From: a virus
Lineage: Duplodnaviria; Heunggongvirae; Uroviricota; Caudoviricetes
Strand: one strand, 5' to 3'
DNA length: 22,366 bases
Virus record (IMG/VR): IMGVR_UViG_2861079508_000002
Part shown: in pieces, positions 1 to 19,296 of the stretch
How the letters are laid out: the number at the start of each line of letters is the position of its first letter
Position numbering within the stretch: position 1 is the stretch's first letter
Program-made: the position numbers and the translations under genes
Notes under the pieces: generated by a model
What the model was told of the DNA's origin: nothing
The model's database searches: none
The model's input: the letters and a program-made list of their open reading frames with translations, nothing else

Positions 1-228
1 ATGTTCAGGCTTGTTGTCCTGCGCGCGCGTATTGCTCGTGAAATTGCTGTACCCAATAGTGATGTCCGAAAAAACCTCCGTTCTCACATGAAACAGCCAT
101 ATGCAACTGGTAACTGAACAGACTGGTAGACCGTTCGTTCAGTAAATACCTGATATTTTCGCCAACGAGAAATTGCGTTGGCTGGCAGGGTGCAAATTTG
201 CACGATGGACTAACCCATTGATTCTTTC

Positions 229-250
229 GAAAACCCCCATTGGGGGAAAA
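229..250 (-). terminator. weak hairpin (CCCCC-ATT-GGGGG) flanked by A/T runs, about 115 nt downstream of the PerC-like gene
   Basis: Sequence GAAAACCCCCATTGGGGGAAAA at 229-250; on the minus strand the stem is followed by TTTTC. Short stem and short T-run. Confidence 0.3.
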
Positions 251-362
251 GCCTAACTCATTGGTTTTCCCACAATCCTCAATTTGAGGAATGTACCTAA
301 AACCATTTTTATAGCTCCGATCCCTTCAAAGTGAGGGGTAATTTGCCAAAACAGAGAGAGCA

Positions 363-650
363 TTACTGTCTCTGGCAATCTTTATCGCGATAACGCCTGA
401 AGTACCCTCTCGCTTCCTCATCCATACCAAGAGCCGAATGAGTCCGCTTAACTGCCTGTCTTAAATCTCCGAATCTGTCTGTAGTTGCTGGTGGGCGTGC
501 CGCCTTACGGATACATTCAGAGCGTCTGTTTGCTGCATGTTCACGTTCTTTATCGCCATCTGCCAGCATCATGACTTCTGCCCATCGTGCGGCAGCTCTC
601 CGGTATAGCCCTTTTGACTCCAGCTCTTCAGCTTTCCTGTCCCTTATCAT
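363..650 (-). CDS. PerC/Pch-family transcriptional activator-like protein (95 aa)
   Basis: ORF-track ORF; SD-like GAGAGG 5 nt upstream of the ATG. N-terminal LESKGLYRRAAARWAEVMM resembles the conserved PerC-family core as recalled from memory, not searched. Confidence 0.45.
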   Translation of the reverse strand: MIRDRKAEELESKGLYRRAAARWAEVMMLADGDKEREHAANRRSECIRKAARPPATTDRFGDLRQAVKRTHSALGMDEEARGYFRRYRDKDCQRQ

Positions 651-686
651 TTCTGCCTCTCAGATTATATAGATAAGCAAAAAGGT

Positions 687-807
687 GTTGGTTCAGTTGG
701 TTCAGTTGGTTCAATTTGTAAAGATCGTTGTTTTTATTGTGTTTTTTCTGAAATATTGAACCAACATCAACTCATTTTGAACCAACACAGCCCAGCTCTG
801 AACCAAC
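687..807. promoter_or_regulatory. phased 9-mer repeat array: three tandem GTTGGTTCA copies followed by three inverted copies at exact 21-bp spacing
   Basis: GTTGGTTCA at 687-695, 696-704, 705-713; TGAACCAAC at 757-765, 778-786, 799-807. Lies between divergent genes 363-650 (-) and 910-1353 (+). Confidence 0.6.
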
Positions 808-860
808 AACACAGCGATAGCTTTGTGATTGGCCCGTTATTTTCTGGCTGATATTTGAGC

Positions 861-891
861 GTATAACAGTGTTATACAGTGGTATACTGTA
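861..891. promoter_or_regulatory. overlapping inverted repeats with a -10-like TATACT, putative operator/promoter of the RHH gene
   Basis: GTATAAC-AGT-GTTATAC at 861-877 and ATACAGT-GGTAT-ACTGTAT at 873-891; TATACT at 883-888, about 20 nt upstream of the ATG at 910. Confidence 0.4.
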
Positions 892-909
892 TGGATATTA
901 CTCACTGAT

Positions 910-1353
910 ATGGTCTTTGCAATGAGCAAATCTAATCTGGTCGCGTTCCGCATCCCATCTGAATTGCAGGATGAGTTTAATCGGTCTGTTCTCGCTTCTG
1001 GAGGGGATAAAACCTCCTGGCTTGTTGATGCGATTCGCATGAAGCTGGGACAGCCGGAAAAGTCTATTGATTCACGAATGCTTGGGCTGGTGGAGCGCAT
1101 GGAAAAAGCCGCTGCGTCGCTTATTGCCGGAAAGCCGAACATCCCACCAAAGCCATATAACGAAACGGCAGTTATAAAGATCATTGCCGATACCATCCGA
1201 CAGGGATTTGATAATGGGCGTGTGATAGCGGAACGGCTCAATGAAGCAGGCTATCAAACAAAAGCTGGTAAAGCATGGGATAAAGACATTTACAGCGCGT
1301 GGAAGCGTCAGGGAAGCAATGCTGAAAAGTTATCAGTGGCCCTAAGAATGTAG
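910..1353 (+). CDS. ribbon-helix-helix (Arc/Mnt/CopG-like) DNA-binding protein with C-terminal extension (147 aa; alternative ATG at 922)
   Basis: N-terminal SNLVAFRIPSELQDEFNRSVLASGGDKTSWLVDAIRMKL fits a beta-strand/helix/helix RHH pattern like Arc/Mnt; adjacent repeat array fits RHH operators. No clear SD. Confidence 0.5.
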   Translation: MVFAMSKSNLVAFRIPSELQDEFNRSVLASGGDKTSWLVDAIRMKLGQPEKSIDSRMLGLVERMEKAAASLIAGKPNIPPKPYNETAVIKIIADTIRQGFDNGRVIAERLNEAGYQTKAGKAWDKDIYSAWKRQGSNAEKLSVALRM

Positions 1354-1369
1354 CCCTATATTTTGATTT

Positions 1370-1747
1370 TTAGACGTGCTTGGAGAACAGGTAGCGTGCC
1401 ATCACTAAAACAATGCCAAAGACTTCAGCGAGGGTTCCCCCCATAAATAGGTTTATAACGAAATCACTAAAATGGAGCAGTTTTGCTCCAATAAGGACAA
1501 AAATCCCATTCATAACTAATAGCTGGCCTATCAGAATGCCGATAAACCACCGAGCAAACATTTTTTTCAGTTTTGTGTCTGTTTTTAAATCTTTTGTTTT
1601 TGCACGCTGATGGGCTTTGGCTGGATCCTCATCATTTAGATGTGTGAGGGTTTTTGCTGATGGTGATGAGCCAGAGGCTGGTTCACCTCTGGCTTGTCTT
1701 GCCGCTTGCTTTAGTTTTTCAGATATAGCGTAAGATCTAGACGTCAT
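1370..1747 (-). CDS. small membrane protein, basic hydrophilic N-terminus and two predicted C-terminal TM helices (125 aa)
   Basis: ATG at 1745-1747 lies 3 nt after the TGA of the upstream ImmA-like gene (translational coupling). Hydrophobic segments FIGILIGQLLVMNGIFVLIGA and LFMGGTLAEVFGIVLVMA. AT-rich. Confidence 0.5.
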   Translation of the reverse strand: MTSRSYAISEKLKQAARQARGEPASGSSPSAKTLTHLNDEDPAKAHQRAKTKDLKTDTKLKKMFARWFIGILIGQLLVMNGIFVLIGAKLLHFSDFVINLFMGGTLAEVFGIVLVMARYLFSKHV

Positions 1748-1750
1748 TAC

Positions 1751-2233
1751 TCATCGAAGCCCTAAATTCTTTAGGCGATAACGTATAGCATCATCGGATA
1801 CACCAAAATAGGAAGCCATCATTACTGGTGCATATCCTGCATTGTTGAGGCGTCGAACCTCTTTTTCTGGCATGAGAAGACATGCTGCAAAGTTATTGGC
1901 GAATATTTCTTCGCTGTCTACACCTTGGCTTGCCAGTTTTCCGCGGTAATCAACAAACTCATATTCAAGTGGCTGACCGTTCTCAGTTCGTTTGACGTAA
2001 TGCCCTAACTCATGCGCACACGTAAATCGTTTGCGCACGTTACTATCATTACGATTGAGTATGATTACTGGATCTTGTTCTGGCTCTTTCAGCAATGCGC
2101 CTGAAACATCATCATCAAGCGTGGTTTCAACAACATCCAACCCTAACTCATTGGCAATCCATACTGGATCAACCGGGAATTTCCTATCGCCCCAGATATC
2201 TTTCAAGAGGGCATGTGCAGATGTATTCGACAT
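1751..2233 (-). CDS. ImmA/IrrE-family (COG2856-like) zinc metallopeptidase (160 aa from the ATG)
   Basis: HEXXH motif in CAHELGHY, with a downstream acidic stretch typical of this family. The ORF-track start at 2239 is GTG; the ATG at 2231-2233 has GGAGG 5 nt upstream and is preferred. Confidence 0.7.
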   Translation of the reverse strand: MSNTSAHALLKDIWGDRKFPVDPVWIANELGLDVVETTLDDDVSGALLKEPEQDPVIILNRNDSNVRKRFTCAHELGHYVKRTENGQPLEYEFVDYRGKLASQGVDSEEIFANNFAACLLMPEKEVRRLNNAGYAPVMMASYFGVSDDAIRYRLKNLGLR

Positions 2234-2927
2234 GTTCACCTCCTTTGATTATGGTTAAATAGTCGAAATTTTCACCACTTCCCTTGTGGATATATTTACA
2301 TATAAAAGGTAACTAGTCACTAACCAACACAAATCTTTTTGAAGACAGATGGGGGGTGTTGAACGGTTTTTAAATGATTTCTTTGATTTTTAACAGCAAT
2401 AAGGAGCATTTTTAATGAAATTAGACGTTGATAATAACTTTTTGAGCAATCTTTACATATCATGGTAGCCTTCTATGCTGTTTTTCCAACTAAAAGATTG
2501 GCACATTTATCCGCTGGTAGTGGCGTTTTTTCGCCGCCAGCGCCTCTCTGGTTCCATTCCTTACATCTGTTCAAATTCAGCAACCCTTGCCGCGATCTTG
2601 CCGTTATCGAGAAGCTCTTTCGCTTTTCGGTTAATACTATCGGTCTTCATATTGCCAGCAGCATACGCCATCCGATAATTTCGATGCTACGCGCGCGTAC
2701 TTGTCGCAAAATATCAGGCAAAGGCCAGATTCAGAAAGTCGTGATAACCACCAGCACAACATGAGAGGTCATGTAACGCGATTTATCACACCAGATACAT
2801 GTGATTGGTGTACCCGCATAAAACATCGTCATAGCGCGTCCTGTGCGCATATACGCCGATAATCAACACATCACCACCACTCTGTCTTATGTAGAGAACA
2901 GTTTTATGGTGCTCCCCGCCATCGTGT

Positions 2928-2991
2928 GCGTACTGGTCGGACGCAGTTGCAAAAAATTTTGCAACTGATACCCCTCGCGCGCGTACTGGTC
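2928..2991. repeat. 11-bp inverted repeat CAGTTGCAAAA-aa-TTTTGCAACTG flanked by direct repeats GCGTACTGGTC
   Basis: Inverted repeat at 2944-2967; GCGTACTGGTC at 2928-2938 and 2981-2991; related GCGTACTTGTC at 2695-2705 and GCGTACTGTAA at 3061-3071. No convincing ORF with an SD covers the region. Confidence 0.5.
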
Positions 2992-3182
2992 ACGAAATTG
3001 GTGTTTTGCTGTGGCAGTGATATCAGAAAAATCTTCCTGTTTCACATAAAGCGGATATGCGCGTACTGTAACGACCCCATCAACGGGGATCGGATTTGAA
3101 ATCCCGACCCAAGCTATGTACCAAATGCCATGTCTTGGATATATGATGATTGCCATTCTAAACAACGCTAAAGGGGGTTGGT

Positions 3183-3797
3183 GTGAGCAGAAAAGATACT
3201 AAAGAATTGCTAACTATCTGCATGGTGTACTTTTCAATTTATTTTTGTGCATACATGATAGTCCCAGACGAGTTTGAACATGGCAGTATTATTTATTCCA
3301 TAACATTCTATTTTTTAGAGCTAACACCAATTTTGGCTATCCTTTTGGCAATACATATTTATTTTTCCTTAAAAAAAGAATCGACTAATTGGGAGAAGGT
3401 ATGGAGAGACAGAGGATTTCTAACATCACCTAAAGATGATGCATATGAGAGTGATTTTTCTGACTTTATAACAAACTACTACTCCAGCGAACAATTCAAA
3501 AATAGACTGTCTGATGTTTGGGAAACAGCAATGTATTCCATAGGGATTACATTATTGATACTTACTGGTATTGCTCAATATGTTTTTAACATTGACTTAT
3601 CATTAAATCCTGAAAATTTAATATCGCCATTGATTTTTGGTGAGATATTGATCTTCTCATTCGGAATTTTCTTGAGTGTTGTTCTCTGCTCATTATGCAA
3701 ACTACTGACTAACAGGTATCCAGGTGAAGCAAGGAGAGCAAGAAAGGCAAATCCATATTATCTTTTATTTCCTAATGGAGACAGCAGAGATATCTAA
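3183..3797 (+). CDS. AT-rich predicted four-TM inner-membrane protein (204 aa, GTG start)
   Basis: GGGGG SD 5 nt upstream of GTG at 3183. Four hydrophobic segments (about residues 10-28, 36-61, 116-135, 148-176). Markedly lower GC than flanking DNA; convergent with the ejection-like operon. Confidence 0.55.
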   Translation: MSRKDTKELLTICMVYFSIYFCAYMIVPDEFEHGSIIYSITFYFLELTPILAILLAIHIYFSLKKESTNWEKVWRDRGFLTSPKDDAYESDFSDFITNYYSSEQFKNRLSDVWETAMYSIGITLLILTGIAQYVFNIDLSLNPENLISPLIFGEILIFSFGIFLSVVLCSLCKLLTNRYPGEARRARKANPYYLLFPNGDSRDI

Positions 3798-4159: not shown

Positions 4160-4244
4160 GTAAGCGTAAACCGACCGCCGTATGTAGCCATTAGACAAGA
4201 ATTGGTAACTTAGACGCCCATCTGACACAGACGGACATCTAAGT

Positions 4245-4664
4245 ATGGAATTACAGGACTGGCGAAAAGAACCTCGTAAAAAGTATTCGAATGAATTCAA
4301 ACTTCGTATGGTTGAACTGGCATCACAACCCGGTGCTTGTGTGGCCCAGATTGCTCGAGAAAATGGCGTCAATGATAATGTTATTTTCAAATGGCTCAGA
4401 CTCTGGCAAAACGAAGGGCGTATATCGCGGCGTCTTCCGGTAACAACCTCTTCTGACACTGGCGTTGAATTATTACCAGTGGAGATAACGCCGGATGAGC
4501 CGAAAGAACCGGTGGCTGCTCTTACTCCGTCTTTATCCACCCAGACTACTGTCAGTGCCAGCTCCTGCAAGGTGGAGTTCCGTCACGGTAACATGACGCT
4601 GGAAAATCCTTCACCAGAGCTGCTCACTGTGTTGATCCGTGAACTGACCGGGAGGGGACGATGA
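4245..4664 (+). CDS. tnpA: IS66-family accessory protein TnpA (Orf1), 139 aa
   Basis: First ORF of the IS; overlaps the next ORF by 4 nt; size and position typical of IS66 orf1. Confidence 0.85.
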   Translation: MELQDWRKEPRKKYSNEFKLRMVELASQPGACVAQIARENGVNDNVIFKWLRLWQNEGRISRRLPVTTSSDTGVELLPVEITPDEPKEPVAALTPSLSTQTTVSASSCKVEFRHGNMTLENPSPELLTVLIRELTGRGR

Positions 4665-5011
4665 TCTCACTCCCGTCAGGCACCCGCATCTGGCTCGTTG
4701 CCGGCGTTACCGATATGCGTAAATCCTTCAACGGACTGGGAGAACAGGTACAGCATGTGCTGAATGATAATCCCTTCTCCGGTCACCTGTTCATCTTCCG
4801 TGGCCGACGGGGTGACACGATTAAAATCCTGTGGGCTGATGCTGATGGTCTGTGCCTGTTCACCAAACGCCTGGAGGAAGGCCAGTTTATCTGGCCTGCG
4901 GTACGTGACGGCAAGGTATCCATTACCCGTTCGCAACTGGCAATGCTCCTCGATAAGCTGGACTGGCGTCAGCCAAAAACATCCCGTCTTAACGCACTGA
5001 CAATGTTGTAA
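4661..5011 (+). CDS. tnpB: IS66-family TnpB (Orf2), 116 aa
   Basis: Second ORF, ATGA overlap with orf1; size and sequence character typical of IS66 Orf2 (recalled). Confidence 0.85.
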   Translation: MISLPSGTRIWLVAGVTDMRKSFNGLGEQVQHVLNDNPFSGHLFIFRGRRGDTIKILWADADGLCLFTKRLEEGQFIWPAVRDGKVSITRSQLAMLLDKLDWRQPKTSRLNALTML

Positions 5012-5041
5012 AAATGTCATGGCCGGATTATAAAAACGGTC

Positions 5042-6655
5042 ATGAGTCAGAAATACCTCATTCGGATCACTGAGCTGGAAAGGTTGCTCTCTGAGCAGGC
5101 TGAAGCCCTCCGTCAGAAAGACCAACAACTGAGTCTGGTTGAAGAGACGGAGGTCTTCCTGCGTTCTGCGCTGGCACGTGCCGAAGAAAAGATCGAAGAA
5201 GATGAGCGGGAAATAGAGCATCTGCGGGCCCAGGTGGAAAAACTGCGCCGGATGCTGTTCGGTACCCGTTCTGAAAAACTGCGTCGTGAAGTTGAACAGG
5301 CTGAAGCCCTGCTGAAACGACGCGAACAGAACAGCGATCGTTACAGCGGGCGTGAGGATGACCCGCAGGTTCCCCGCCAGTTGCGACAGTCGCGTCATCG
5401 TCGCCCGTTACCGGCGCATCTGCCCCGCGAAATAAACCGCCTGGAGCCAGAAGAAAGCTGTTGCCCGGAGTGTGGTGGTGAGCTGGATTATCTGGGGGAA
5501 GTCAGCGCAGAACAACTGGAACTGGTGAGCAGCGCCCTGAAAGTGATCCGCACAGAACGGGTAAAAAAAGCCTGTACAAAATGTGACTGCATCGTTGAAG
5601 CACCGGCACCGTCCCGTCCGATAGCGCGTGGTGTCGCGGGCCCGGGGTTACTTGCCCGCGTGTTAACGGGAAAATACTGCGAACACCTGCCACTGTATCG
5701 TCAGAGTGAAATCTTTGCCCGTCAGGGTGTCGAACTGAGCCGTGCGTTACTCTCCAACTGGGTTGACGCGTGCTGCCAGTTAATGACGCCGCTGAATGAT
5801 GCCCTGTACCGTTACGTGATGAACACCCGCAAGGTTCACACTGATGACACACCAGTAAAAGTGCTGGCACCGGGCAGGAAGAAGGCGAAAACAGGATATA
5901 TCTGGACGTATGTCCGGGATGACAGGAATGCCGGTTCGCCAGAGCCTCCGGCGGTCTGGTTCGCCTACTCACCGGATCATCAGGGGAAACATCCGGAGCA
6001 GCACCTTCGTCCCTTCCGGGGTATCCTGCAGGCAGATGCGTTTAATGGCTACGATCGGCTGTTCAGTGCCGGACGTGAAGGCGGCGCGTTGACGGAAGCA
6101 GGATGCTGGGCTCATGCGCGACGTAAAATCCACGATGTATATATCAGTACCAAAAGCGCGACAGCGGAAGAAGCCCTGAAACTAATCGGTGAACTGTACG
6201 CCATCGAGCACGATATACGCGGGTTACCGGTGTCTGAACGCCTGGCGGTCAGGCAAATGCAGAGTAGACCGCTCCTGACTTCCCTGTATAAGCTGATGCA
6301 GGAGAAAGAACACACGTTATCGAAGAAATGTCGTCTGGGAGATGCGTTCCGGTATATCCGGAAGCACTGGGCTGCGTTGTGCAACTTCTGTGATGATGGC
6401 CTGGCTGAGGTAGATAATAATGCCGCAGAAAGAGCGCTTCGTGCAGTCTGTCTCGGGAAGAAAAATTATGTGTTCTTCGGCAGCGATCACGGTGGCGAGC
6501 GTGGAGCACTGTTGTACGGGCTGATCGGCACCTGCCGACTGAACGGTATAGATCCGGAAGCGTATCTGCGCCATATCCTGGGTGTACTGCCGGAATGGCC
6601 TTCCAACCGTGTTGACGAGCTCCTGCCATGGAACGTAGCACTCACCAATAAATAA
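5042..6655 (+). CDS. tnpC: IS66-family transposase TnpC (Orf3), 537 aa
   Basis: Large third ORF with N-terminal coiled-coil-like region, Cys cluster CPECGG...CTKCDC and a long catalytic domain; ends 30 nt before the right IR. Confidence 0.9.
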   Translation: MSQKYLIRITELERLLSEQAEALRQKDQQLSLVEETEVFLRSALARAEEKIEEDEREIEHLRAQVEKLRRMLFGTRSEKLRREVEQAEALLKRREQNSDRYSGREDDPQVPRQLRQSRHRRPLPAHLPREINRLEPEESCCPECGGELDYLGEVSAEQLELVSSALKVIRTERVKKACTKCDCIVEAPAPSRPIARGVAGPGLLARVLTGKYCEHLPLYRQSEIFARQGVELSRALLSNWVDACCQLMTPLNDALYRYVMNTRKVHTDDTPVKVLAPGRKKAKTGYIWTYVRDDRNAGSPEPPAVWFAYSPDHQGKHPEQHLRPFRGILQADAFNGYDRLFSAGREGGALTEAGCWAHARRKIHDVYISTKSATAEEALKLIGELYAIEHDIRGLPVSERLAVRQMQSRPLLTSLYKLMQEKEHTLSKKCRLGDAFRYIRKHWAALCNFCDDGLAEVDNNAAERALRAVCLGKKNYVFFGSDHGGERGALLYGLIGTCRLNGIDPEAYLRHILGVLPEWPSNRVDELLPWNVALTNK

Positions 6656-6685
6656 GTATCAATACGGCACTCCGTTAACGCTTAC

Positions 6686-6693
6686 GTTCCTTT
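6686..6693. repeat. 8-bp target-site duplication GTTCCTTT, right copy
   Basis: Identical to 4152-4159. Confidence 0.8.
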
Positions 6694-8456
6694 CCATGTA
6701 CGCCTTTAAAGAAAGTTGCTGATTGCTTCCTGTTCCGGTGTAACGCATTAATAAACTTCTCAACACTGATATTTCCAGACGGATCAGTCGCCTTATCTAC
6801 AGCATTCTGAACTATGGCTGCTCGTGCGTTTTGCCTACCATTGTCATCCAGAAGCCTGTAAAGCTGAGAACGTTCTGATGGGCTTTGGCTAAAAACGAGT
6901 TTTGTTACATCCTCAGGCGTGGCCTTGCCGCTGGCTATTGCCTTTTGAACGCGCGTTCTTCCCATCATGTCATTGAATTTAGACCATGAGCGATCAACCC
7001 TTGCCATATTAATGGCTTCGTCTGCTCCAAGATTTTTGGCTACGGCTTTTTTCATATCCGCCGTATATGCCTTATAGATAATATCGCTGGCTTTCTGGAG
7101 CGTATCTTTATCAACAGTGTCAGATGACGCCATAAATCGCTTTCGAAGATCGGTTCTGTTTTCCCTCGCCAGACGCAGGTCATTTGGTCCGCTGGTGATA
7201 TCGTCTTTAAATTGCTGCAAGACTTTTACCGCGGCTCTATCCTGAGATTTACCCGGGCGGCTTAACACGGCAATCTGATTGTCGATAGCTTTTACCGTGT
7301 TTGAGAGATCGACAGGGGTATCCCCCATAGCGTCAATTATGCGGTTATATCGCTTTCCTGCTGCCTCAATGAATTTTTGTTGCCCTTTAGTCGCAGATTC
7401 ATAAAGCTGTTTATCAGAAATGCCACCCAGACCATCGCTAAATGTTCTGACTAAATTTTCTCGTGCTTGTTGTTGATTCAGCCGATTCTTACCGGTTCCA
7501 AAAAAAGGAACTCTTTCGCCTAATGTCTGAGCCTGACTCTGCATAAAGGTTTTATCTTTCAGCATGTCACTGGTCATTAACGGCAGATTTCTTTCCGATG
7601 CAAAGTCGACAGCAGCCTTTGCTTCAGGCGACATATCACCACGAACAGCCCTCGAAACCGCACTCGCTGTATTTTCCAGCCCCTTACCAATACCACCAAT
7701 GCCAGCAGAAATTACCGTTTGTAACGGATCAATATCTTCTCCACCAGCGAGGCTGGTGGCTCCCTGTAGTGCTAAATCTGTAGCTGCTGATTTCCCTATG
7801 GCCCCCAGCACCGTTCCGGCCCTGCCCGCTGGTGTAAACGCCAGCGCATTAGCCAGAAACGATGCCACGTCTTGCGGCGATAAACCCGGCTTGTTCAGAG
7901 CATAATCACCGGATGGCAGGGAAACGATAGTGTTACCCTTCTCATCCTGCCTTAATTTCGCTCCCATGCTCTGAAGAATCTTTTCCTGAGATGCGTCAGA
8001 GCCGAAAAGTTGAGACCATCGAGCTTTTAGAGCATCCATGCTGAGTGAGGTTAACTCTGGGGCAAGGTCGACATTTTGCAGTCTCTCCATCTCTGGAGTC
8101 ATTCGGCTTTCGCCTGTTATAGCATCGCGCATCGCAGCCCCAAGGCTGGCTCCCTGTTCTGCTGAACGCTCAAGCCCCTCTCTTTGCTGAGTAGCTAACT
8201 TTGCATACCCTGACGCAAGAGAATTATCAGATGATGTATGTTGAATATTTTGAGTTGCTGATTGGGATCGGTCTATTTCATTCGTTGATGGTAGTGGATA
8301 GGCAGCATAAAAAGCCTGCTTAGCCTGCTCTACACTTTCTCCGGCTTGCGGGGCCACGACTTCATTGAAGTATTGCTCCTGAGCCTGCGCTTTTTGTTCT
8401 GGTGCTAACGCCTGATACTGTGGAGAGGCGATAACATCTTTCCATGCTTTAGCCAT
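6686..8456 (-). pseudogene. 5' fragment (about 590 codons) of the IS-disrupted gene; large Gln/Ala-rich virion/ejection-like protein (P22 gp16-position)
   Basis: ORF-track ORF 6675..8456; its last 3 codons and stop are IS sequence. Start overlaps the upstream stop as TAATG at 8454-8458. Confidence 0.7.
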
Positions 8457-9877
8457 TAATCACCCCATAGTGAAGAAAAGTTACTGCTGGCTGCTGGCTG
8501 TGATACCTGCTCAGATTGCGGCAATGTCTGCGACGAAGAAGAAGTTCCTCTGTCAACTGCTAAAATAACCCGCAAAGCATCATAAGCTCGACCAGAAGCA
8601 GCTTTCAGCGAATTGAACTGGTTTTCCATCTTCCGGCGCTTGGTATCAATGGTTTTTGTGGAGTCGCCAGGCTGAGGGAAATACATTTGATAATATTTTG
8701 ACATTTCAGCAGGTACGATAGCTGCCCCTGTTTCCTGACGGAGTATTGCCATTATTGCGTCATTAGCATTAACAACGTATTGCTGCTCTGTTGGGCTGAG
8801 CGTTAAGTTAGCCAGCGTCCCATTACCCAAAGCATTATTAATGACCGCCACTCGCTGTGGGCTAAGCTGGTCTTTCAGTGTATCTATTGAATCAAGAGCA
8901 TCCCTAACCCTGTATGCAAATCCAGCAGCTTTTTTAGCCCCTTCTGGCGACTTTTCCATGATCTTTTGGGCTGTTGGCAAAGCTATTGGACGAAATCCAT
9001 CTCCAGATATTGGCTGGTTTAGTTTTCCCTGCTCTTCACTTCCGTCTGTGTAGTATTTTGTGACAGTGCCATCATCGTTTTCTCTAACACTCATTAATTT
9101 TTTGGCGTTTGTATTAATTCCAGCCGCTGCCGCAAATGCCGCCGCCCCCTCTGGATCCGCCTTTAACATTTGAGCGTACTGATTGTAATTCTGCATTGCT
9201 GCTGTTGGTGCATATGCTGACGTTAACGCATTTGCTCGGCTAATATCCTGCCCTCTCGCCTGAAGTGCTTCGCCAGCCTGATTGCTGCGGATTGTCTCTG
9301 CCAACTTGCCACGCTCAATATCCCGACCTTCCATTTGATCTTTGATATCGAAATACTTCTCATGACCGAGAGAAAACAGTGCCATACTACCAGCAAGCCG
9401 CTGGAACCCCTGTGGATCATTAACATGCATTTCGGCAACAGACTCAGGAGAAATTCCCAAGCGACGCATTTCATCTTCGTTATCTGCTATGAATTTTCCA
9501 AATGCCCCAGTTCCGAGCGAAGATGCGATTTGAGCACTAGTCGCAAGATGACCAATAGAATTTCTCTGGTCGTCATCAATAAAGCCCATCCCTTTCTGAA
9601 CGCTTTCAAATTCTTCTGGATACTCAGAAATAAGACTGCGCATTTTGTTTCTGTCTCCAGACTCAAAAGCCCCGGCATATGCTTTCTGAAACTCTGCTTT
9701 ACGCTGTTGTTGACGTGCCTGCTGATTAATCTCAGCAACGCCTCTTAGCCCCTGTAGCGCCATTAAACCTACGTTTGGCTGCTGCTGATACTGCACAGGC
9801 TGAGGAACGGAAGAACGAGGAGCATTATCATTTTGCGGTGCCATGCTAGGCAGCCCGCCAAGTTGCCATGTCGCCAT
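8456..9877 (-). CDS. 473-aa protein, candidate P22 gp20-like ejection protein
   Basis: Translationally coupled at both ends (TAATG). Size matches P22 gp20 (471 aa, from memory); Gln/Ala-rich. No profile search done. Confidence 0.5.
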   Translation of the reverse strand: MATWQLGGLPSMAPQNDNAPRSSVPQPVQYQQQPNVGLMALQGLRGVAEINQQARQQQRKAEFQKAYAGAFESGDRNKMRSLISEYPEEFESVQKGMGFIDDDQRNSIGHLATSAQIASSLGTGAFGKFIADNEDEMRRLGISPESVAEMHVNDPQGFQRLAGSMALFSLGHEKYFDIKDQMEGRDIERGKLAETIRSNQAGEALQARGQDISRANALTSAYAPTAAMQNYNQYAQMLKADPEGAAAFAAAAGINTNAKKLMSVRENDDGTVTKYYTDGSEEQGKLNQPISGDGFRPIALPTAQKIMEKSPEGAKKAAGFAYRVRDALDSIDTLKDQLSPQRVAVINNALGNGTLANLTLSPTEQQYVVNANDAIMAILRQETGAAIVPAEMSKYYQMYFPQPGDSTKTIDTKRRKMENQFNSLKAASGRAYDALRVILAVDRGTSSSSQTLPQSEQVSQPAASSNFSSLWGD

Positions 9878-10554
9878 TAGAATCCAAGCCCCCCAACAAG
9901 ACCAATAAGCCCACCACCAATAGCGCCGGCCGCAGTTCCTATTCCAGGAACAACGGAACCAAGTTGCGCACCCGCTAAAGCGCCTGATGCTGCCCCACCA
10001 ATACCACGCGCAAGACTGGATGGCTGCTGCGCCTGACCTGCACGAATAGCGCCAAGCCCCTGCAAGAGTTGTCCGGTATTATTGGCGTAGTTTTGCCCTG
10101 CCGTTGCCTGCCCTGATGCCGCATTCATCCCGACATTTAGCAGGTTTCCATAATTTTGCATTTGCCCACTAAGCCAATTGTTATAAAGCATGGGCGCAAT
10201 GGAAGATAACTGGTTACTGGTAGCTGTTGAGCCAAGCCCCCCGGTAGCTTCTGCTGAGACAAGGTTCTGATAACGGGCCTGATCTGCCTGTGTTTTATAT
10301 AAACCAGAACCAAAGAAATCATTCGCGGCTTTATTCTGCCCTTCCAGAGTCATCAGTCCTTGTAGTTGTTGTAAAGCAGGCAATCCGACTTCTGCATACG
10401 GCTTGAGATTATTCATCACCGTATTCCACTGCTCGCGCTGCAAATCAATTGCCTGCTGCTGGGCCTTCGCCTGAGCTTTAGAGGCACCACCATCACCGCC
10501 TTTTTCGTATACGGCACGATTGAGATGTTTATGAGCTATATGGGTAATTAACAT
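9877..10554 (-). CDS. 225-aa Gly/Ala/Gln-rich protein with glycine-zipper-like C-terminus, candidate P22 gp7-like ejection protein
   Basis: Start overlaps the upstream stop (ATGTTAA). N-terminal YEKGGDGGASK and C-terminal GIGGAASGALAGAQLGSVVPGIGTAAGAIGGGLIGLVGGLGF; size close to P22 gp7 (229 aa, recalled). Confidence 0.5.
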   Translation of the reverse strand: MLITHIAHKHLNRAVYEKGGDGGASKAQAKAQQQAIDLQREQWNTVMNNLKPYAEVGLPALQQLQGLMTLEGQNKAANDFFGSGLYKTQADQARYQNLVSAEATGGLGSTATSNQLSSIAPMLYNNWLSGQMQNYGNLLNVGMNAASGQATAGQNYANNTGQLLQGLGAIRAGQAQQPSSLARGIGGAASGALAGAQLGSVVPGIGTAAGAIGGGLIGLVGGLGF

Positions 10555-11009
10555 TCGCTGAATTCCTTATATTGTTGCCGAGTTAACTGATAAAGCGTTA
10601 CGCCGACGGGTTTACCACATCTGATATAAGCATCATCAAGGTGACCAACACGGGTAGCGCCAAGCAAACGGATAATTGCCCGTCCGTATTTCGTGGTGTC
10701 AGGAACCATGGTAATGCTGTTAAGGAATGGTGAGTTTTCGAGAAGCCATTTGCAGAATAATCGATGCCCTTGCAGTGCATATTCACCACGGAATCCGGGG
10801 TCGTACACCGCATGGCATTCAACAACGCTATGCCAGAAGTTACGCACTTCATGAACGCCAGCCAGCACCAATCCTTCGTAGATGCCGAGATATACCGCAT
10901 CAGGCTTGATGTAGTACGTGTGCCCCGGCTCAACAATATTTTCGGTATTGGCAGGCTCGTTAAGAAAGGCCTGTAATCGCACCGGGTTATCAATAAATTT
11001 TAGTTCCAT
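10548..11009 (-). CDS. 153-aa protein, first large gene of the operon (P22 gene-14 position)
   Basis: ATG at 11007-11009 with GGATGG about 10 nt upstream; stop overlaps the next start. Assignment by synteny only. Confidence 0.45.
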   Translation of the reverse strand: MELKFIDNPVRLQAFLNEPANTENIVEPGHTYYIKPDAVYLGIYEGLVLAGVHEVRNFWHSVVECHAVYDPGFRGEYALQGHRLFCKWLLENSPFLNSITMVPDTTKYGRAIIRLLGATRVGHLDDAYIRCGKPVGVTLYQLTRQQYKEFSEC

Positions 11010-11026
11010 GCGGTGCCATCCATTTT

Positions 11027-11188
11027 CACATACAGCCTGCCAGCGCCTTATCTATTAACCCTCGTGCAATTTCATGCAGAGTTGGCGCTACTCCAATTCC
11101 TGATTTTTTACGCTGCTCTTCCTGAATTTTCTTTATCGCTTCCATTTGCTTCTCACTTATCAATACCGGCTTTACTGAAATAGCCATA
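11027..11188 (-). CDS. 53-aa small protein, possible RHH/Arc-type regulator (below the ORF-track size cutoff)
   Basis: My own translation MAISVKPVLISEKQMEAIKKIQEEQRKKSGIGVAPTLHEIARGLIDKALAGCM; GGGGG SD 4-5 nt upstream of the ATG; TGA lies 16 nt before the next ATG. Minus-strand TATAAT at 11221-11226. Confidence 0.35.
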
Positions 11189-11280
11189 ACGCCCCCTTAG
11201 AACTGTATAAAACAACAGTTATTATAGTTTCACAAATCGCAATATTCATCATCGTAATTGCAAAATATGAAACAAATAGC

Positions 11281-11315
11281 ACAAAAAAATGCCACCGCTC
11301 AGTAGCTGGTGGCAT
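11281..11315 (-). terminator. Rho-independent terminator (8-bp stem ATGCCACC/GGTGGCAT, 11-nt loop, T6-7 run on the minus strand)
   Basis: Plus strand AAAAAAATGCCACCGCTCAGTAGCTGGTGGCAT; hairpin then T-run when read on the minus strand. Separates the primase island from the ejection-like operon promoter. Confidence 0.55.
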
Positions 11316-11681
11316 CGTTCTGTGTGTCAGGTTTTGACAGGTTTTTTATGGACTCTAAAAACTATATTTATGGTATCGCATTACTCTTCACGGCAGGCGC
11401 TTTTCAGTTCTGCCCTTGCTTCTGGCTCCATTGGTAATTTGATTCGCGATCAGCTATGCGGATGGTTTGCTGAACAGGCATAACAACATCTCAGAGGCTA
11501 TTTTTTGAACTACGAAAATTTCGTAGGTCTCTCCTTCAAAAACGTCACGCCCTTGTACACTGGATTTTACAAAAGTCTCGTAAAACTCTTTCCTGTTCTG
11601 GGCTATGTGCCAAACCGCAGCGAATACCTCCGTCTGCCAGATGAGCAAAACATACCTTATAAAGAAAATCGCTGTTTTTGC

Positions 11682-11786
11682 TGTACCACCTGTACCACCA
11701 TGTCACAAACCCTTGTGTGGCGCGGCCTGTAGGTGGTACAGGTGGGTAAAAATGACCTCTCCCCACCTGTACAGACCTGTACCATT
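11682..11786. repeat. iteron-like cluster B: direct and inverted copies of core GGTGGTACAGGT
   Basis: ACCTGTACCACC at 11688-11699 (partial TGTACCACC at 11682-11690), GGTGGTACAGGT at 11732-11743, partial inverted copies near 11765-11772 and 11776-11785. Immediately after the stop of gene 11790..12527. Confidence 0.6.
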
Positions 11787-11789
11787 TAT

Positions 11790-12527
11790 TTAATTTTTAC
11801 CCATAGCAGCACATAATCCCTTTTTTGAAATATTGAAAAATGCGTTCATTCTTCCCGCTGGCTTAACCTTGTAGCCGCTTGCCACCATCGCCGCAATAAA
11901 TGCTCCGTTGGGGATATAGTGCGGGTGATCACTGTGCTGGTGGTTTATCTGGTTATATCGCTCCACTTCATGCTTCAACGTGTCAGATGTGGGGTTATCC
12001 TGCGGGAAGCTCTCAATCTGGGCATTACTCATCCCGTTGTCTCTGATCCATCTCAGGCAGCTTTTCGCCGATACGATAAATGACGGGTTATCAAGCGGGT
12101 TTTCCCAGTCCGCATTCCGGTTGTGGAGCGCCAGTCCGTCAAGGTTAAATTGTGGGTATTCAGCGGTAATTACTGTCACTGCGTGGCGGATTTCAGTCTC
12201 GTCACAACATGGCTCATCTCCCACACCAGCAGGGTAATAATCTGAACCACCGGGACTGATACAGCGTTTACCACTGAAAGGCCATTGCTTCGCCATTTCG
12301 GGTGTTGAGTGATTACCGTCGCTCCGTTCGCGCTGTGCCTCTGTCCACTGGCTGGCATATTCAGTAAATGAAACCCTTTGCCCCTGGCGCATCCAGTGCG
12401 CAATCATAATTAAAGTGCGTTCCAGACTTTGGATGTCGCCAGCATTCCCGCACTGTGTAGCGAAACTTTTTAATTCTTCGCGCTCCGTTCTGGTCATTCC
12501 CTGCGGTATGCAATAGTTATTGTTCAT
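11790..12527 (-). CDS. 245-aa hypothetical protein (Cys/His-containing)
   Basis: ORF-track ORF; ATGA overlap with the upstream 78-aa gene; bracketed by iteron clusters. No recognisable motif by eye. Confidence 0.55.
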   Translation of the reverse strand: MNNNYCIPQGMTRTEREELKSFATQCGNAGDIQSLERTLIMIAHWMRQGQRVSFTEYASQWTEAQRERSDGNHSTPEMAKQWPFSGKRCISPGGSDYYPAGVGDEPCCDETEIRHAVTVITAEYPQFNLDGLALHNRNADWENPLDNPSFIVSAKSCLRWIRDNGMSNAQIESFPQDNPTSDTLKHEVERYNQINHQHSDHPHYIPNGAFIAAMVASGYKVKPAGRMNAFFNISKKGLCAAMGKN

Positions 12528-12760
12528 GTTTTACCTCTCTGTTTTACCTCTCTGATTTCTGCTGCCATATCTGTTGGCTCTATACAGCCGTCCCGACTTG
12601 CCACGCAGGGAATAATGATTTCAACGGTATCGCCGTCAATACACATTTCAACATTCGCCCATGCCGCAATGGGTAGCCAGTCTGAACGCCCCTCAAACCG
12701 TAGCTGCCAGCCAGAGGAAGAAGCTAACTGGCGCACTTTGTAAAATGGTGTGCTCATCAT
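12524..12760 (-). CDS. 78-aa hypothetical protein
   Basis: ATG-ATG start at 12755-12760; coupled to the 245-aa gene. The intergenic region upstream holds iteron cluster A. Confidence 0.5.
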   Translation of the reverse strand: MMSTPFYKVRQLASSSGWQLRFEGRSDWLPIAAWANVEMCIDGDTVEIIIPCVASRDGCIEPTDMAAEIREVKQRGKT

Positions 12761-12801
12761 TGGTTGTTCCCTCTCAGCCAGCCAGAAGAAATGCGTTTGT
12801 T

Positions 12802-12907
12802 AATGGTATAGGTGGTACAGGTCTGGTATAGGTAAGATATTGACCTGTACCACTATAACGCACTGTTTTTAATACTGAATTAGCAAAATGGTATAGGTGG
12901 TACAGGT
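12802..12907. repeat. iteron-like cluster A: exact 21-mer AATGGTATAGGTGGTACAGGT twice plus an inverted copy between
   Basis: 21-mer at 12802-12822 and 12887-12907; partial copy 12825-12834; inverted ACCTGTACCACTATA at 12843-12857. Between the primase stop (12937) and gene start (12760). Confidence 0.65.
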
Positions 12908-12936
12908 AAAAACGTTCTTCTTGTAAAAAGACTATA

Positions 12937-15291
12937 TTAAAAAACATCATAACCCCCCATACCGATCAGACGTGCAAACGCAGCCTGTAGAACTCCGACC
13001 TCTGGTAGTTCGTAGAACACGCCATTCCCACGGTCTGGTCTTCCATGCTTCACCAGTCCCATTTGTGCAAGTGATTTACCCAGTAGTGATCTGGCTGCTG
13101 GTTCTTTAAGCTTTTCCCCACGCTCAAGCGACCACGCTACAAATCGACTAACCATATCCTTTGCAAACAAACGGACTTCGCCATTAAACGGAGGTTCATT
13201 GATTAGCTCGCCATAAAGAAACAATTCAACGCCAGACAGCCCCAGCAAGATTTCTTCACGTAAGGCATCGGTCTGTGGCGCTCGTTGAGGGTCAAAACCT
13301 GAGAGATCCACCCCTTTAAGATGCCAAAGCAACTTTGCGGCACCGCCATCATTAAGCCAACTGTACAGCCGATCAAAATACTCCCGGCTCTGTGCTTTTT
13401 CAGGAGATGGCTCAAGCACGAGATAGCGGCGCTCTCTTATCCCTGCCTGTAATACCTGTGTGCTGTTACTGGCAAATATCAACCGGGCAAAATTCGGCAT
13501 TGGTTCAGCATCAATTCCCTTGCGCTCAAGGTTAAACGTCGGTTCGCTAATAATCGCTTTAAGTCTGTCAGCTTCAGACGGCTTGTGGATCGTCACTTCG
13601 TCAGCAAATACCAGTAGCTTGTTAGCAAGTATTGAATTGAAGCGCCCTGAAATATGTCCCGCCCCGTTAATGTGGGCGGCGTACTGCCCCAGTATTTGCA
13701 GCAGCGGTTTAACCGTTGTGCCTTTCCCTGTGCCCGGGACAGATTTCATCACGATTGCCACGGACGGTTTTTCATCAGGCTTTTGGATAATGTGCGCCAT
13801 CCACTGGATAAGATATTGGTATGCCTCTTCATTACCGGCACAGACAACCTGCAACAGGTGATTAAGGTATACCGTGCAATCTCCTTCAATTGGTTCCAGT
13901 GCCAGCCCCTCATACAGATTAAAAACATCGTCAGGGCATTTGTCTGGTACTGGATAAAATCCTACGCCTCCTGGCTTGTAGTTCTTCCCACTCCATGACA
14001 GCCACGCCGATCCCGCCAGCTTTCTGGCGACTCTCGGTTTATGATGAAAATAATGCTGAAATTGTGATAAATCCTCGAAAACGTGCGATACACCGCCGGT
14101 TTGAGAAGGCTTTAGCGACACCACCTTGTGTTTCCCGCCGATGGTGACATGCGTAAACGTCCGGTTGATTTCTTCGAGGACAGCAATTTCATCATCGCTT
14201 AACACCTCGCCAGAACTGATCTCATTCAGCGCCCCGACTGACTGTTTGTGATTTTTCACCTGCGCCCCTTTCCCCCGTGGCTGGTACATCGAATCTTTAA
14301 ATGCTGCTGTGGCTGCCGCCAGCCCGTGTTGTTGGTGATAGTCGTTCCAGTCGGCTTTATAGTCAGTCGGTGGCAGAGACACCCAGCCAGCTACGGAAAT
14401 AGCGGCCCTCTCTGCGGCATCTTTCCCCGTGTTGATCCCTCCACTTTCGGAGTTTCCTTGCTGGTGATCGTTATCTGCGGCAATGATGATTTGTGCCTGT
14501 GGATATGTTCTGCGCATGACTTCCGCTACTGGCAACAGGTTGCCAGCGTCGATTGCTGCCACTGTCATTGCGTCAGGGCGAATTAAATGGCACGACAGGG
14601 CGGTAGCCACCCCCTCAGCAATTATGATGCTGTGAGGTCGTTTCTGTGCGTTTATGGCGTGATATGCCCCCCGCTTTGCTGAACCTGTCAGGAGTCTTTT
14701 TTCACCATGTGAGGTAATTGTCTGTGCTGCTGTGACTGCGCCGGATTTATCCACCAGCGCCAGCAACAGAGATCCATCGGGCAACACGGGGAATGTAAAA
14801 TCACCTACCCCTTTCGCAACCAGATAATCAGATTTGCCGTTTACAGCCTTTCTGCGCATGTCATCAAACTGACGGGAAAACGTATCCCGTCTTTGTTGTT
14901 CGTCCTTCTCTGCCCTTTTCAGGCGCTCCTGTTCGCGTCGCTGGCGCTCGGTTTCCAGTTGTTCCCGTTTCTGGCTGGTGGCTTCTGGTGTTTCCGTTGT
15001 CCGGTAATCAATACCCAGAACATCAGCGGCAAGCAGCGCCGCCTCTGTTGTGTCGCAGTTATTTACGCGTTTAATTAAATCCAGCCCATCACCAGCGCCG
15101 CACTGATTACAGATGAAGCTACCGCGCCCGTTGTCATCGAACCGGAATCGATCTTTGCCCCCACATGCAGGGCAGGGAGCATGACGGCGCGGAGAGTCAG
15201 GGACATTTATGTTCAGGCAGCCCAGCACATGAGGCCAGTTGTTTTCAGACGCACTGATAACCTGACGGATAAGATCAATGTTTCGCATCAC
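12937..15291 (-). CDS. P4 alpha-type primase-helicase (784 aa)
   Basis: N-terminal Zn-ribbon CPACGGKDRFRFDD...CNQCGAGDG; central toprim-like region; C-terminal Walker A VPGTGKGTT. Architecture typical of P4 alpha / PICI Pri-Rep proteins. GTG start at 15291, ATG one codon later. Confidence 0.9.
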   Translation of the reverse strand: MMRNIDLIRQVISASENNWPHVLGCLNINVPDSPRRHAPCPACGGKDRFRFDDNGRGSFICNQCGAGDGLDLIKRVNNCDTTEAALLAADVLGIDYRTTETPEATSQKREQLETERQRREQERLKRAEKDEQQRRDTFSRQFDDMRRKAVNGKSDYLVAKGVGDFTFPVLPDGSLLLALVDKSGAVTAAQTITSHGEKRLLTGSAKRGAYHAINAQKRPHSIIIAEGVATALSCHLIRPDAMTVAAIDAGNLLPVAEVMRRTYPQAQIIIAADNDHQQGNSESGGINTGKDAAERAAISVAGWVSLPPTDYKADWNDYHQQHGLAAATAAFKDSMYQPRGKGAQVKNHKQSVGALNEISSGEVLSDDEIAVLEEINRTFTHVTIGGKHKVVSLKPSQTGGVSHVFEDLSQFQHYFHHKPRVARKLAGSAWLSWSGKNYKPGGVGFYPVPDKCPDDVFNLYEGLALEPIEGDCTVYLNHLLQVVCAGNEEAYQYLIQWMAHIIQKPDEKPSVAIVMKSVPGTGKGTTVKPLLQILGQYAAHINGAGHISGRFNSILANKLLVFADEVTIHKPSEADRLKAIISEPTFNLERKGIDAEPMPNFARLIFASNSTQVLQAGIRERRYLVLEPSPEKAQSREYFDRLYSWLNDGGAAKLLWHLKGVDLSGFDPQRAPQTDALREEILLGLSGVELFLYGELINEPPFNGEVRLFAKDMVSRFVAWSLERGEKLKEPAARSLLGKSLAQMGLVKHGRPDRGNGVFYELPEVGVLQAAFARLIGMGGYDVF

Positions 15292-15646
15292 CGTACCCCA
15301 CGTGGTCTATAGCGTTTGCGATATGGCTAACCAGCATCTGCCACTTGGTTATTCCGTAATCAGTCAGCATGCCATCATTGTTTAGCCACATATCAAATTC
15401 AGCGGTTGTCGCAAGTTTCCACTTATCGCCGTGGACAGTCCTCATTGCTGGGTACATGAATGCGCAAATCAGATCACAAACATCTGACGGCTTCAGAGAT
15501 GTAGTAATGGTGCGTCCCTCTGGCGTCTGAATTGCCATTTTCTCTTCACCAGTAGAATGAAGGTTATGAATCCACACAGCACCAGCAATCTTTGCCACCT
15601 GCTCTCCGATTGCGGAGCTAAGCGCCATTTCTGCATTTTCACGCAT
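15275..15646 (-). CDS. 123-aa hypothetical protein
   Basis: ATG with GGGAGG upstream; overlaps the primase start by 17 nt. Confidence 0.5.
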   Translation of the reverse strand: MRENAEMALSSAIGEQVAKIAGAVWIHNLHSTGEEKMAIQTPEGRTITTSLKPSDVCDLICAFMYPAMRTVHGDKWKLATTAEFDMWLNNDGMLTDYGITKWQMLVSHIANAIDHVGYGDAKH

Positions 15647-15980
15647 GAGAACCTCCCGCTACAGTTGCGCCCATGTCATTAACCATGCTTTGCCATATCT
15701 CACGCCCGACGTCAGTCAATCCGTCCTTAGTGACGCAACGCTCAATAAGCTCGATCCCCACGGTTTCCCACTGCGGGTAGAACACTTTCATGGCTGCCAG
15801 TGTGTAGCTATCGATCAGGCTGCGAACGCCTTTTACTCCATTGACGATTTCCACACGTACGGCCTCGCCGTCCGCATCAACCATGAAATAGTCCCCTCCG
15901 CTGGTGGAGGTAATGTGGTTATACAGTGCCGACGCATACTTATTTGCCAGCGCATTCAGTCGGAAATTTTTAGTAATCAT
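15639..15980 (-). CDS. 113-aa hypothetical protein
   Basis: ATG at 15978-15980 with GAGGA 7 nt upstream; stop overlaps the next gene start. Confidence 0.5.
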   Translation of the reverse strand: MITKNFRLNALANKYASALYNHITSTSGGDYFMVDADGEAVRVEIVNGVKGVRSLIDSYTLAAMKVFYPQWETVGIELIERCVTKDGLTDVGREIWQSMVNDMGATVAGGSHA

Positions 15981-15990
15981 GGTTCCATCC

Positions 15991-16593: not shown

Positions 16594-16807
16594 GTTTCGC
16601 CTCGCCTGAATGATTCTGTAACTCATATTTGCCCAACAATTCGTCCGCTTCCTGAATAGCTTCTGGTACGCCATTGAGCAGTGACATAACCGCGCCAATC
16701 ATTAACTTGTCTCTGTTGCTTGGGCTGGCCCCTTCAAGCCAGAACCCTAAAACAGTCTGAACCTGTTCAATGCGACATTGCGCTTCAATGAGCTGGATGT
16801 TGGTCAT
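16586..16807 (-). CDS. 73-aa hypothetical protein
   Basis: ORF-track ORF, coupled to neighbours by overlapping stop/start. Confidence 0.45.
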   Translation of the reverse strand: MTNIQLIEAQCRIEQVQTVLGFWLEGASPSNRDKLMIGAVMSLLNGVPEAIQEADELLGKYELQNHSGEAKHE

Positions 16808-19284: not shown

Positions 19285-19296
19285 TTTCAGTCTCCG

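Follow-up and report, generated by a model that had tools for sequence, protein, structure and literature searches.

Three tandem and three inverted copies of the 9-mer GTTGGTTCA stand upstream of a ribbon-helix-helix (RHH) gene in the window, by which we mean the whole stretch of 22,366 bp analysed here. We hold it likely, at a probability of about three in four, that this array is a PICI iteron-origin unit orphaned by the swap to a DUF5906 module, and that the RHH protein represses its own gene through a palindrome at 861-877. The PICI iteron origin unit and the RHH autorepressor are both kinds of feature that are already known.

Anatomy of the array

The original prediction described three head-to-tail 9-mers followed by three inverted ones in 21-bp steps, and this description holds. 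Direct reading and repeat search place GTTGGTTCA contiguously on the + strand at 687-695, 696-704 and 705-713, and the repeat search finds its reverse complement, TGAACCAAC, at 757-765, 778-786 and 799-807, with start-to-start distances of 21 and 21 bp. These six are the only exact copies, in either orientation, in the window; when one mismatch is allowed, 14 matches are found in the window against 5.25 +/- 2.43 expected, a number reached in 0 of 100 shuffles. The 43 bp between the two sets have a GC content of 21%, compared with 47.6% for the window, so that two sets of exact short repeats surround an AT-rich region, as in an origin of this type. The array measures 121 bp in total (687-807), and a further 115 bp separate its end from the start codon of the RHH gene. 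It consists of the following parts.

687..713, + strand: tandem iterons of putative origin unit A, three contiguous GTTGGTTCA; identical in all 14 units aligned, which come from 8 genera
714..756, no strand: AT-rich spacer, candidate DNA-unwinding element by its composition; its length and a AATTTGTAAAGA..TTGTTTT motif are conserved
757..807, - strand: phased iterons, TGAACCAAC on the + strand at 757, 778 and 799; 21-bp period, unconserved 12-bp spacers

Across the alignment of these 14 units it is the 9-mers and their phasing that stay invariant, and the 12-bp spacers between the phased copies drift. The spacings of the window's unit (9, 9, 52, 21 and 21) define type A; type B is mirrored, with spacings of 21, 11, 52, 9 and 9, and lies 2-10 kb from type A where a locus has both. 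Many loci have two arrays, and elsewhere A and B are fused into a composite of ~260-290 bp that does not adjoin an RHH gene. In the alignment, the difference between units B and A amounts to about one helical turn, and the 21/11 spacing of unit B in the siblings indicates that helical phase is kept. Invariant iterons and phasing, together with the association of the array with a primase gene, are the behaviour expected of iterons to which an initiator binds.

Association with the DUF927 primase-helicase

As the RHH gene had served to select the earlier loci, an independent sample was drawn by scanning viral contigs for GTTGGTTCAGTTGGTTCA alone, which yielded 55 contigs with a two-orientation array. 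A DUF927 primase tail ends within 200 bp of the array in 48 of them (median 63 bp), so that the array family lies where an origin directly 3' of pri-rep would lie: the array stands ~60 bp past the stop codon of a Toprim-DUF927 primase-helicase whose tail in those contigs reads "GRGYQRKSPR". In L042 the composite array starts 24 bp past the stop of a 937-aa Zn-ribbon/Toprim/DUF927 primase-helicase and is followed by perC. Every primase-bearing locus selected through the RHH gene has an array of the same geometry directly 3' of the stop, and its word varies with the C-terminal tail of the primase, as listed here.

Tail ..GRGYQRKSPR(I/V)xGRQxNV..: iteron GTTGGTTCA, 7 loci
Tail ..GDKGRYKKRTITVDG..: iteron AGTGTGTCA, L026 and L038
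Tail of L050: iteron AGACAACA, L050
Tail of L047: iteron CCGGTTCA, L047
Tail of L043: iteron TGGGATAA, L043
Primase type of 783-795 aa: iteron ATGAACAC, L035 and L044
DUF5906 tail: CTGTACC words, the window and L022

At least six tail classes are thus matched with six words under a constant geometry, as iteron words matched to initiator alleles would be. From this co-location and covariation we infer that the DUF927 tail binds the iterons. PDB sequence searches with both primase tails gave no match to any solved origin-binding domain, so a winged-helix origin-binding domain is not demonstrable for the tail.

How might such a unit work? It is composed of three iterons in direct contact and three others spaced by two helical turns, arranged around the 43-bp AT-rich stretch. 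We propose that the C-terminal tail of the Toprim-DUF927 primase-helicase (Pri-Rep) would bind them, contacting the contiguous copies to one side of that stretch and, to the other side, copies that share one helical face. The bound Pri-Rep would melt the AT-rich stretch and load itself there. Complete elements have one such unit, B, directly 3' of the pri-rep stop codon, and in many of them there is also a unit A in mirrored form, which is fused with B or lies several kb off beside perC. The distal unit is probably dispensable, given that relatives exist with a single unit beside the primase (L071, L076, L086, L094, L100, L101, L107, L124 and L130).

The nearest described counterpart is the E. 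coli PICI origin, in which two iteron sets flank an AT-rich region (PMC6092414, Fig. 2 legend). Gram-negative PICI origins of the EcCICFT073 type (Fillol-Salom et al. 2018, PMC6092414) share with the array family two sets of short iterons with an AT-rich putative melting region, a position directly 3' of the primase-helicase gene in an int/alpA-like/pri-rep/perC island, and initiator alleles paired with different iteron words. Unlike these origins, the window's unit has no adjacent primase, its cognate initiator is absent, and the siblings have two mirrored units, fused or split by ~8 kb of cargo. A literature search with the literal 9-mers returned unrelated papers only, a comparison outside which the iteron sequences in the figure of PMC6092414 lie. 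Megablast of positions 300-1800 against the phage collection gave no match.

Two further origin systems bear comparison. The origin of P4, made up of ori and crr and served by the alpha protein, is reportedly bipartite. It has two separated clusters of the same octamer/nonamer iteron, bound by the C-terminal domain of the primase-helicase. The window's own DUF5906 (P4-family) primase resembles it in having two TGGTAYAGGT clusters ~1.1 kb apart, and the putative origin is bipartite in the array family too, with two separated clusters of one iteron. The family differs from P4 in that GTTGGTTCA units go with a DUF927-type helicase and not with D5/DUF5906, in that the tail has no similarity to solved structures, and in that some GTTGGTTCA relatives have a single unit. 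In SaPI origins, iterons flank an AT-rich region 3' of rep, and Rep-ori specificity is matched. The array family is similar in its iterons around an AT-rich region and its initiator-matched word; however, the initiators are unrelated, and SaPIs belong to Gram-positive hosts. To our knowledge, no split or mirrored duplicate origin unit has been described for SaPIs.

Exchange of the replication module in the window

In E. coli, the window is an island inserted between yicG and yicC. Among its genes are those for a tyrosine integrase (21107-22366), an HTH regulator, an AntA/B antirepressor and an Ash-family protein, P22-type DNA-ejection and DUF2824 genes and ImmA/IrrE, with the RHH gene and perC at the far end; the RHH gene has perC, a 125-aa membrane protein and ImmA/IrrE as neighbours. 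Its gene set is that of Gram-negative PICIs and is similar to the one of EcCIMP1 (PMC11773190). The divergent PerC-like gene that had been proposed on the other side of the array is borne out by its Pfam match, and the module of perC and unit A also occurs in L057, L072, L088, L120, L131, L024, L030, L032 and L042. The features that concern replication are listed together with perC.

363..650, - strand: perC-family gene (Pfam PerC, E = 2.6e-33), start codon 37 bp from the first iteron
12937..15291, - strand: primase-helicase, Zn-ribbon/Toprim/DUF5906, P4-alpha type by Pfam; its tail differs from the GTTGGTTCA-associated tail
12804..12907, no strand: own iteron cluster 1, six TGGTAYAGGT in both orientations, ~30 bp past the primase stop
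11688..11784, no strand: own iteron cluster 2, three TGGTACAGGT, beyond genes of 245 aa and 78 aa
11593..14266, no strand: replication-module swap relative to L051 by blastn, replacing unit B and the DUF927 helicase and tail

TGGTAYAGGT occurs in nine exact copies in these two clusters and nowhere else in the window, and 0 of 100 shuffles reach that count. A sibling element, L051 (E. coli F374), occupies the same yicG/yicC site. It begins with perC, followed by unit A and the RHH gene, then by ~8 kb of cargo and, behind this, by unit B at 11930-12040; the stop codon of a DUF927 primase (12066-14822) with the cognate tail lies 26 bp from unit B. The L051-type Pri-Rep has the accession WP_001555747.1. 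In blastn the window matches L051 at 99.8% over 1-3186, at 99.4% over 6686-11592 and at 96.1% over 14267-22366. The segment 11593-14266 is unmatched; in it lie the DUF5906 helicase and tail together with two small genes and both TGGTAYAGGT clusters. The window's array lies ~12 kb from the primase gene, and the element has, in place of the cognate initiator, one of DUF5906 type with another tail and iterons of its own.

Recombination has thus put a DUF5906 (P4-alpha-type) module, with TGGTAYAGGT iterons of its own, in the place of unit B and of the helicase and tail cognate to it. The loss of unit B and the cognate primase in this swap leaves unit A orphaned, and the presence of the TGGTAYAGGT clusters with the DUF5906 module suggests that the window's replicon is complete without GTTGGTTCA. 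Perfect conservation of the array in the window is uninformative, because the swap is recent, as seen from flanks that are 99.4-99.8% identical to L051. The orphan unit A is probably a recent relic that would have no replication role unless the cognate Pri-Rep were supplied in trans. Among E. coli genomes, 509 have the cognate primase with unit B, 364 of them at a coverage of at least 80%, and A and B stand ~9.5 kb apart in strains such as CRE1540, AH25 and EC28; at least 80% of the window is covered by six records. The two-unit form is therefore common and the window-type recombinant rare. Four of the six window-type records (NZ_CP160112, CP160108, CP160104 and AP045773) have a single array place each, which suggests that no cognate origin exists elsewhere in those genomes.

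The position of the array near the int-distal end of the element, adjoining perC, would also suit arm-type sites of the integrase, excisionase sites, or binding sites of PerC. This is highly improbable. The same array occurs with integrases that are only 24-90% identical to the window's, it lies more than 1 kb from the yicG junction, most arrays adjoin primase genes and not att sites, and in many loci the perC homologues beside the same array are only 38-54% identical. Integrase arm sites and PerC sites were rejected on these grounds.

The RHH gene and its product

The gene behind the array exists as predicted, but its start was placed too far upstream: in place of position 910 and 147 aa, the most likely start is the ATG at 922, giving 143 aa (MSKSNL...). 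The latter is preferred because all homologues begin with MSKS and because PGAP annotates it in identical E. coli records.

922..1353, + strand: 143-aa protein with a predicted RHH domain at about residues 4-45, a linker helix and a recombinase-like HTH at about 78-143

In the AF2 monomer model, residues 1-12 are extended or disordered, helices 13-25 and 32-42 are predicted at low confidence, and the C-terminal domain (78-143) is confidently helical. A low-confidence N-terminus in a modelled monomer is the look expected of an obligate-dimer RHH protein. The hhalign alignments of the family keep the register of Arc (E = 0.0076) and, across the full RHH domain, that of Mnt (E = 0.0041). An exhaustive profile search retrieved remote relatives of the family, which were then classified by Pfam. 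One of these (P0204) has two copies of the N-domain and scores 24.1 bits against RHH_1, for which the cut-off is 20.5; another (P0199) has three copies and matches RHH_1, Arc and HicB. Among relatives of the C-domain, P0211 matches HTH_62 (E = 2.5e-11) and P0207 matches Recombinase (26.8 bits, cut-off 21.1).

Searches with the window protein itself were less telling. Pfam and NCBIfam gave sub-threshold Recombinase/HTH_62 matches in the C-terminal part only and no RHH match; PDB sequence searches with the protein and with the family profile returned only noise; the N-terminal 52 aa, used in a word-indexed search, retrieved truncated copies only; and Foldseek of the AF2 monomer model against the PDB found nothing at E <= 0.001, as is expected when an obligate-dimer fold is modelled as a monomer. 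The AF2 pattern, the hhalign alignments and the Pfam matches of the remote relatives together point to an RHH domain fused to a recombinase-like HTH, and membership of the window protein in the RHH group is supported through its remote relatives, not through a Pfam match of its own. The Arc/Mnt/omega-type N-terminus that had been predicted is in this way upheld by secondary structure, by the Arc and Mnt alignments and by relatives above the RHH_1 cut-off, and the RHH profile search suggested as a check favours it for the remote relatives, the window protein itself giving no Pfam RHH match.

With Arc/Mnt/CopG-type autorepressors the protein has in common an N-terminal beta-strand followed by two helices, an FRxPxEL signature, a putative operator over its own promoter, and a change of operator with the beta-strand residues. 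Unlike them, it has an extra C-terminal recombinase-like HTH (HTH_62), nearly invariant among homologues, and no Pfam RHH match of its own, being placed via remote relatives.

Probable operator of the RHH gene

Between the array and the gene, the repeat search finds a perfect palindrome, GTATAACA/TGTTATAC, at 861-868/870-877 and a 10-bp direct repeat, ACAGTGTTAT/ACAGTGGTAT, at 866-885. Two overlapping palindromes had been described at this place; the repeats are real, but there is a single palindrome, for which two to three 10-bp direct repeats are an alternative reading. The -10-like TATACT reported upstream of the gene is present at 883-888, and with the TG at 880-881 it forms an extended -10.

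861..877, no strand: palindromic operator GTATAACAgTGTTATAC, candidate RHH site; sole copy in the window, follows the beta-strand class
880..888, + strand: extended -10 TGgTATACT, candidate RHH promoter; TGnTATAAT/TGnTAAAAT at the same position in 42 loci

We base the proposed promoter on this conserved extended -10, since a strict consensus scan of 600-960 for two-hexamer promoters and terminators gave no sites.

For comparison, 49 homologous RHH loci were fetched from species-representative genomes, and the 42 with an intact N-terminus were compared. All 23 proteins of the class S(N/T)L(V/I)AFR have GTATAACAnnGTTATAC, two bases on TGnTATA(A/C)T, and all 19 of the class S(L/I)SVTFR have TGTCTTACAnTGTCTTAC(A/G)gTGnTAAAAT at the equivalent position. 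The cross-table of beta-strand class and proximal repeat type is 23/0/0/19 (Fisher p = 2e-12), a value that overstates independence because the loci are phylogenetically related. Both proximal repeat types share GT...ACA and differ in the central triplet, a difference consistent with two to three altered DNA-facing residues of the strand. The proximal repeats at 861-885 thus covary with the DNA-reading beta-strand, as an RHH operator should. We consider it most likely that the RHH protein represses its own extended -10 promoter via the palindrome at 861-877, in a site that may extend up to 888. To this extent the original prediction, which had noted palindromes just upstream of a putative RHH gene, gains support from the perfect covariation with the beta-strand class.

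Dissociation of the array from the RHH gene

The other part of that prediction, that the six 9-mers form a cooperative omega/ParG-like operator array of the RHH protein controlling both its gene and perC, has to be judged very unlikely. It has in its favour that the protein is predicted to be RHH, that the array lies 115 bp 5' of its start codon, that a type A unit lies at a fixed distance upstream of an RHH homologue in about 15 loci, which belong to different genera, and that the array is enriched with one beta-strand class, being found upstream of 12 of 19 genes of the S(L/I)SVTFR class versus 2 of 23 of the S(N/T)L(V/I)AFR class. However, the 9-mer array at 687-807 does not covary with the strand: the identical 9-mer stands with both classes, and it is the proximal repeats that switch. 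The array is missing upstream in 28 of 42 homologous loci, though their proteins are 60-77% identical, and lack of conservation at homologous loci had been named beforehand as an outcome that would speak against the operator. Conversely, the RHH gene is missing from 23 of the 25 array-selected loci that extend for 3 kb or more on both sides, L120 has perC and unit A without it, and among the 55 iteron-selected contigs the RHH protein is encoded anywhere in the fetched DNA in five and adjoins the array in one. It is the DUF927 primase-helicase that the array tracks, and changes in the word of the array accompany changes in the primase tail, not changes in the RHH protein.

RHH homologues recurrently lie beside origin-like or other repeat arrays with several different words. 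The array beside the RHH gene of L009 has the word of the L043 origin, and in L028, L021 and L044 triplets of TGGATACC or TGGAAACC stand beside RHH-like genes.

A partition centromere, in which a ParR/ParG-like RHH protein would bind two repeat blocks flanking its promoter, is barely credible. Two blocks of short repeats by an RHH gene do resemble parC/ParR of plasmid R1; however, the repeats are all upstream of the RHH promoter and do not flank it, the array and the RHH gene dissociate, and the annotation of the identical E. coli element contains no ParA/ParM-type NTPase. A type Ib/II partition centromere was rejected, there being no partner ParA/ParM NTPase beside the RHH gene.

One could also imagine dual use, with a Pri-Rep-bound unit kept mainly as a switch, through which binding of the initiator or firing of the origin after induction would turn perC and RHH on or off, and with the orphan sensing an incoming cognate PICI. 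The perC start is 34-67 bp from the array in many loci, the RHH promoter lies at a fixed distance of 40-60 bp past the last phased iteron, and the origin-like arrays beside RHH genes differ in their iteron word, as L009 exemplifies. We nevertheless regard dual use as unlikely, as many elements have a single unit and no RHH gene, perC is adjacent in only some, and the adjacency may come from shared origin sequences acting as recombination joints, as in the swap seen in the window.

Implications

It is doubtful, though worth stating for what it would entail, that the orphan unit has been kept for an action in trans, as a decoy or incompatibility determinant titrating the GTTGGTTCA-specific Pri-Rep or as a sensor, with the mirrored units serving as recombination joints. 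As a decoy, it would titrate the Pri-Rep of competing GTTGGTTCA-specific PICIs, which abound in E. coli, where at least 364 genomes have the cognate primase with unit B; as a sensor, it would couple the expression of perC and the RHH gene, or the amplification of the island itself, to the arrival of a PICI. The mirrored origin units may be joints at which PICIs exchange replication and cargo modules.

For the reading that we prefer, an orphaned PICI origin unit beside an RHH gene with its own proximal operator, a specialist would find none of it surprising. Its dissociation from the RHH gene corrects a plausible misreading: phased short repeats beside a small DNA-binding gene in a mobile element are not necessarily the operator of that gene. 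The family offers two specificity series from which recognition rules might be derived, one of DUF927 Pri-Rep tails versus iteron words and the other of RHH positions 5, 6 and 8, N-L-A versus L-S-T, with GTATAAC versus GTCTTAC (GTATAACA versus GTCTTACA). The swap that left an orphan origin in a PICI bears on the recombination of satellites and possibly on the competition between them.

Exchange of the replication module

The element in the window and L051, its sibling at the same yicG/yicC site in E. coli F374, differ in the replication module, which occupies 11593-14266 in the former and 11887-13815 in the latter. It is this module that has been swapped between two PICIs whose remainder is near-identical. 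The exchange joint falls within the coding sequence of the primase: both elements share its N-terminal ~340 aa, with the Zn-ribbon and Toprim, and beyond the joint the helicase and tail diverge, with DUF5906 in the window versus DUF927 in L051.

The DUF5906 primase of the window has iterons of its own, with nine exact copies in all:

11688-11784, TGGTAYAGGT iteron cluster
12804-12907, TGGTAYAGGT iteron cluster

Between the clusters lie a 245-aa gene and a 78-aa gene, and the two-cluster layout of this primase module is reminiscent of the ori and crr of P4.

Insertion, accessory genes and regulatory RNAs

Further features of the window are as follows:

1370-2239, - strand, ImmA/IrrE metallopeptidase gene, then the gene of a 125-aa protein
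~4160-6685, IS66-like insertion with three ORFs (139, 116 and 537 aa)
6675-11009, genes for P22-type DNA-ejection proteins plus a DUF2824 gene, within the PICI
17713-17800, - strand, C4 antisense RNA (Rfam)
17825-17901, - strand, isrK (Rfam)
21032-21098, - strand, int-alpA RNA (Rfam)

The insertion interrupts a 701-aa gene that is annotated intact in L051 and in the homologous locus L001, both of which are missing the insertion; in one related record an ISEc23-family transposase is annotated at the site. All three RNAs exceed their gathering scores (77, 62 and 61 bits, respectively). They are regulatory RNAs of kinds characteristic of P1/P7/P4-like and island immunity regions.

The ImmA/IrrE gene and its 125-aa neighbour are convergent with the RHH gene. 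This neighbour (phrog_5346) has a hydrophobic C-terminus and occupies the place of the usual HTH partner of ImmA/IrrE. Between ImmA/IrrE and a SieA-like 204-aa gene, about 940 bp (2240-3182) bear no gene annotation. The presence of ejection-type genes in a PICI has been discussed for EcCIMP1 and its P22-like helper phage Kapi1 (PMC11773190).

Homologues of the RHH gene

Other repeat sets lie upstream of RHH homologues in three compared loci:

L028, 9560-9830
L021, 1600-1640
L044, 9605-9645

They include TGGATACC and TGGAAACC, three times each, and GTGCCACATG palindromes that recur every 44 bp. None of these sets represents the iterons of the nearby primase. In Pantoea coffeiphila (L006, 9712-12312) the phased 9-mer array (origin unit A) and the RHH gene form a module in tandem repeat: the unit recurs at 9712, 10963 and 12214, and there are two RHH hits, identical to each other.

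In the remote relatives P0199, P0204 and P0208 the RHH-like domain occurs two or three times in tandem within a single chain; in P0208 Pfam additionally matches a GIY-YIG nuclease motif, below threshold (19.2 bits against a cut-off of 22.6). These tandem domains would be covalently linked RHH 'dimers'.
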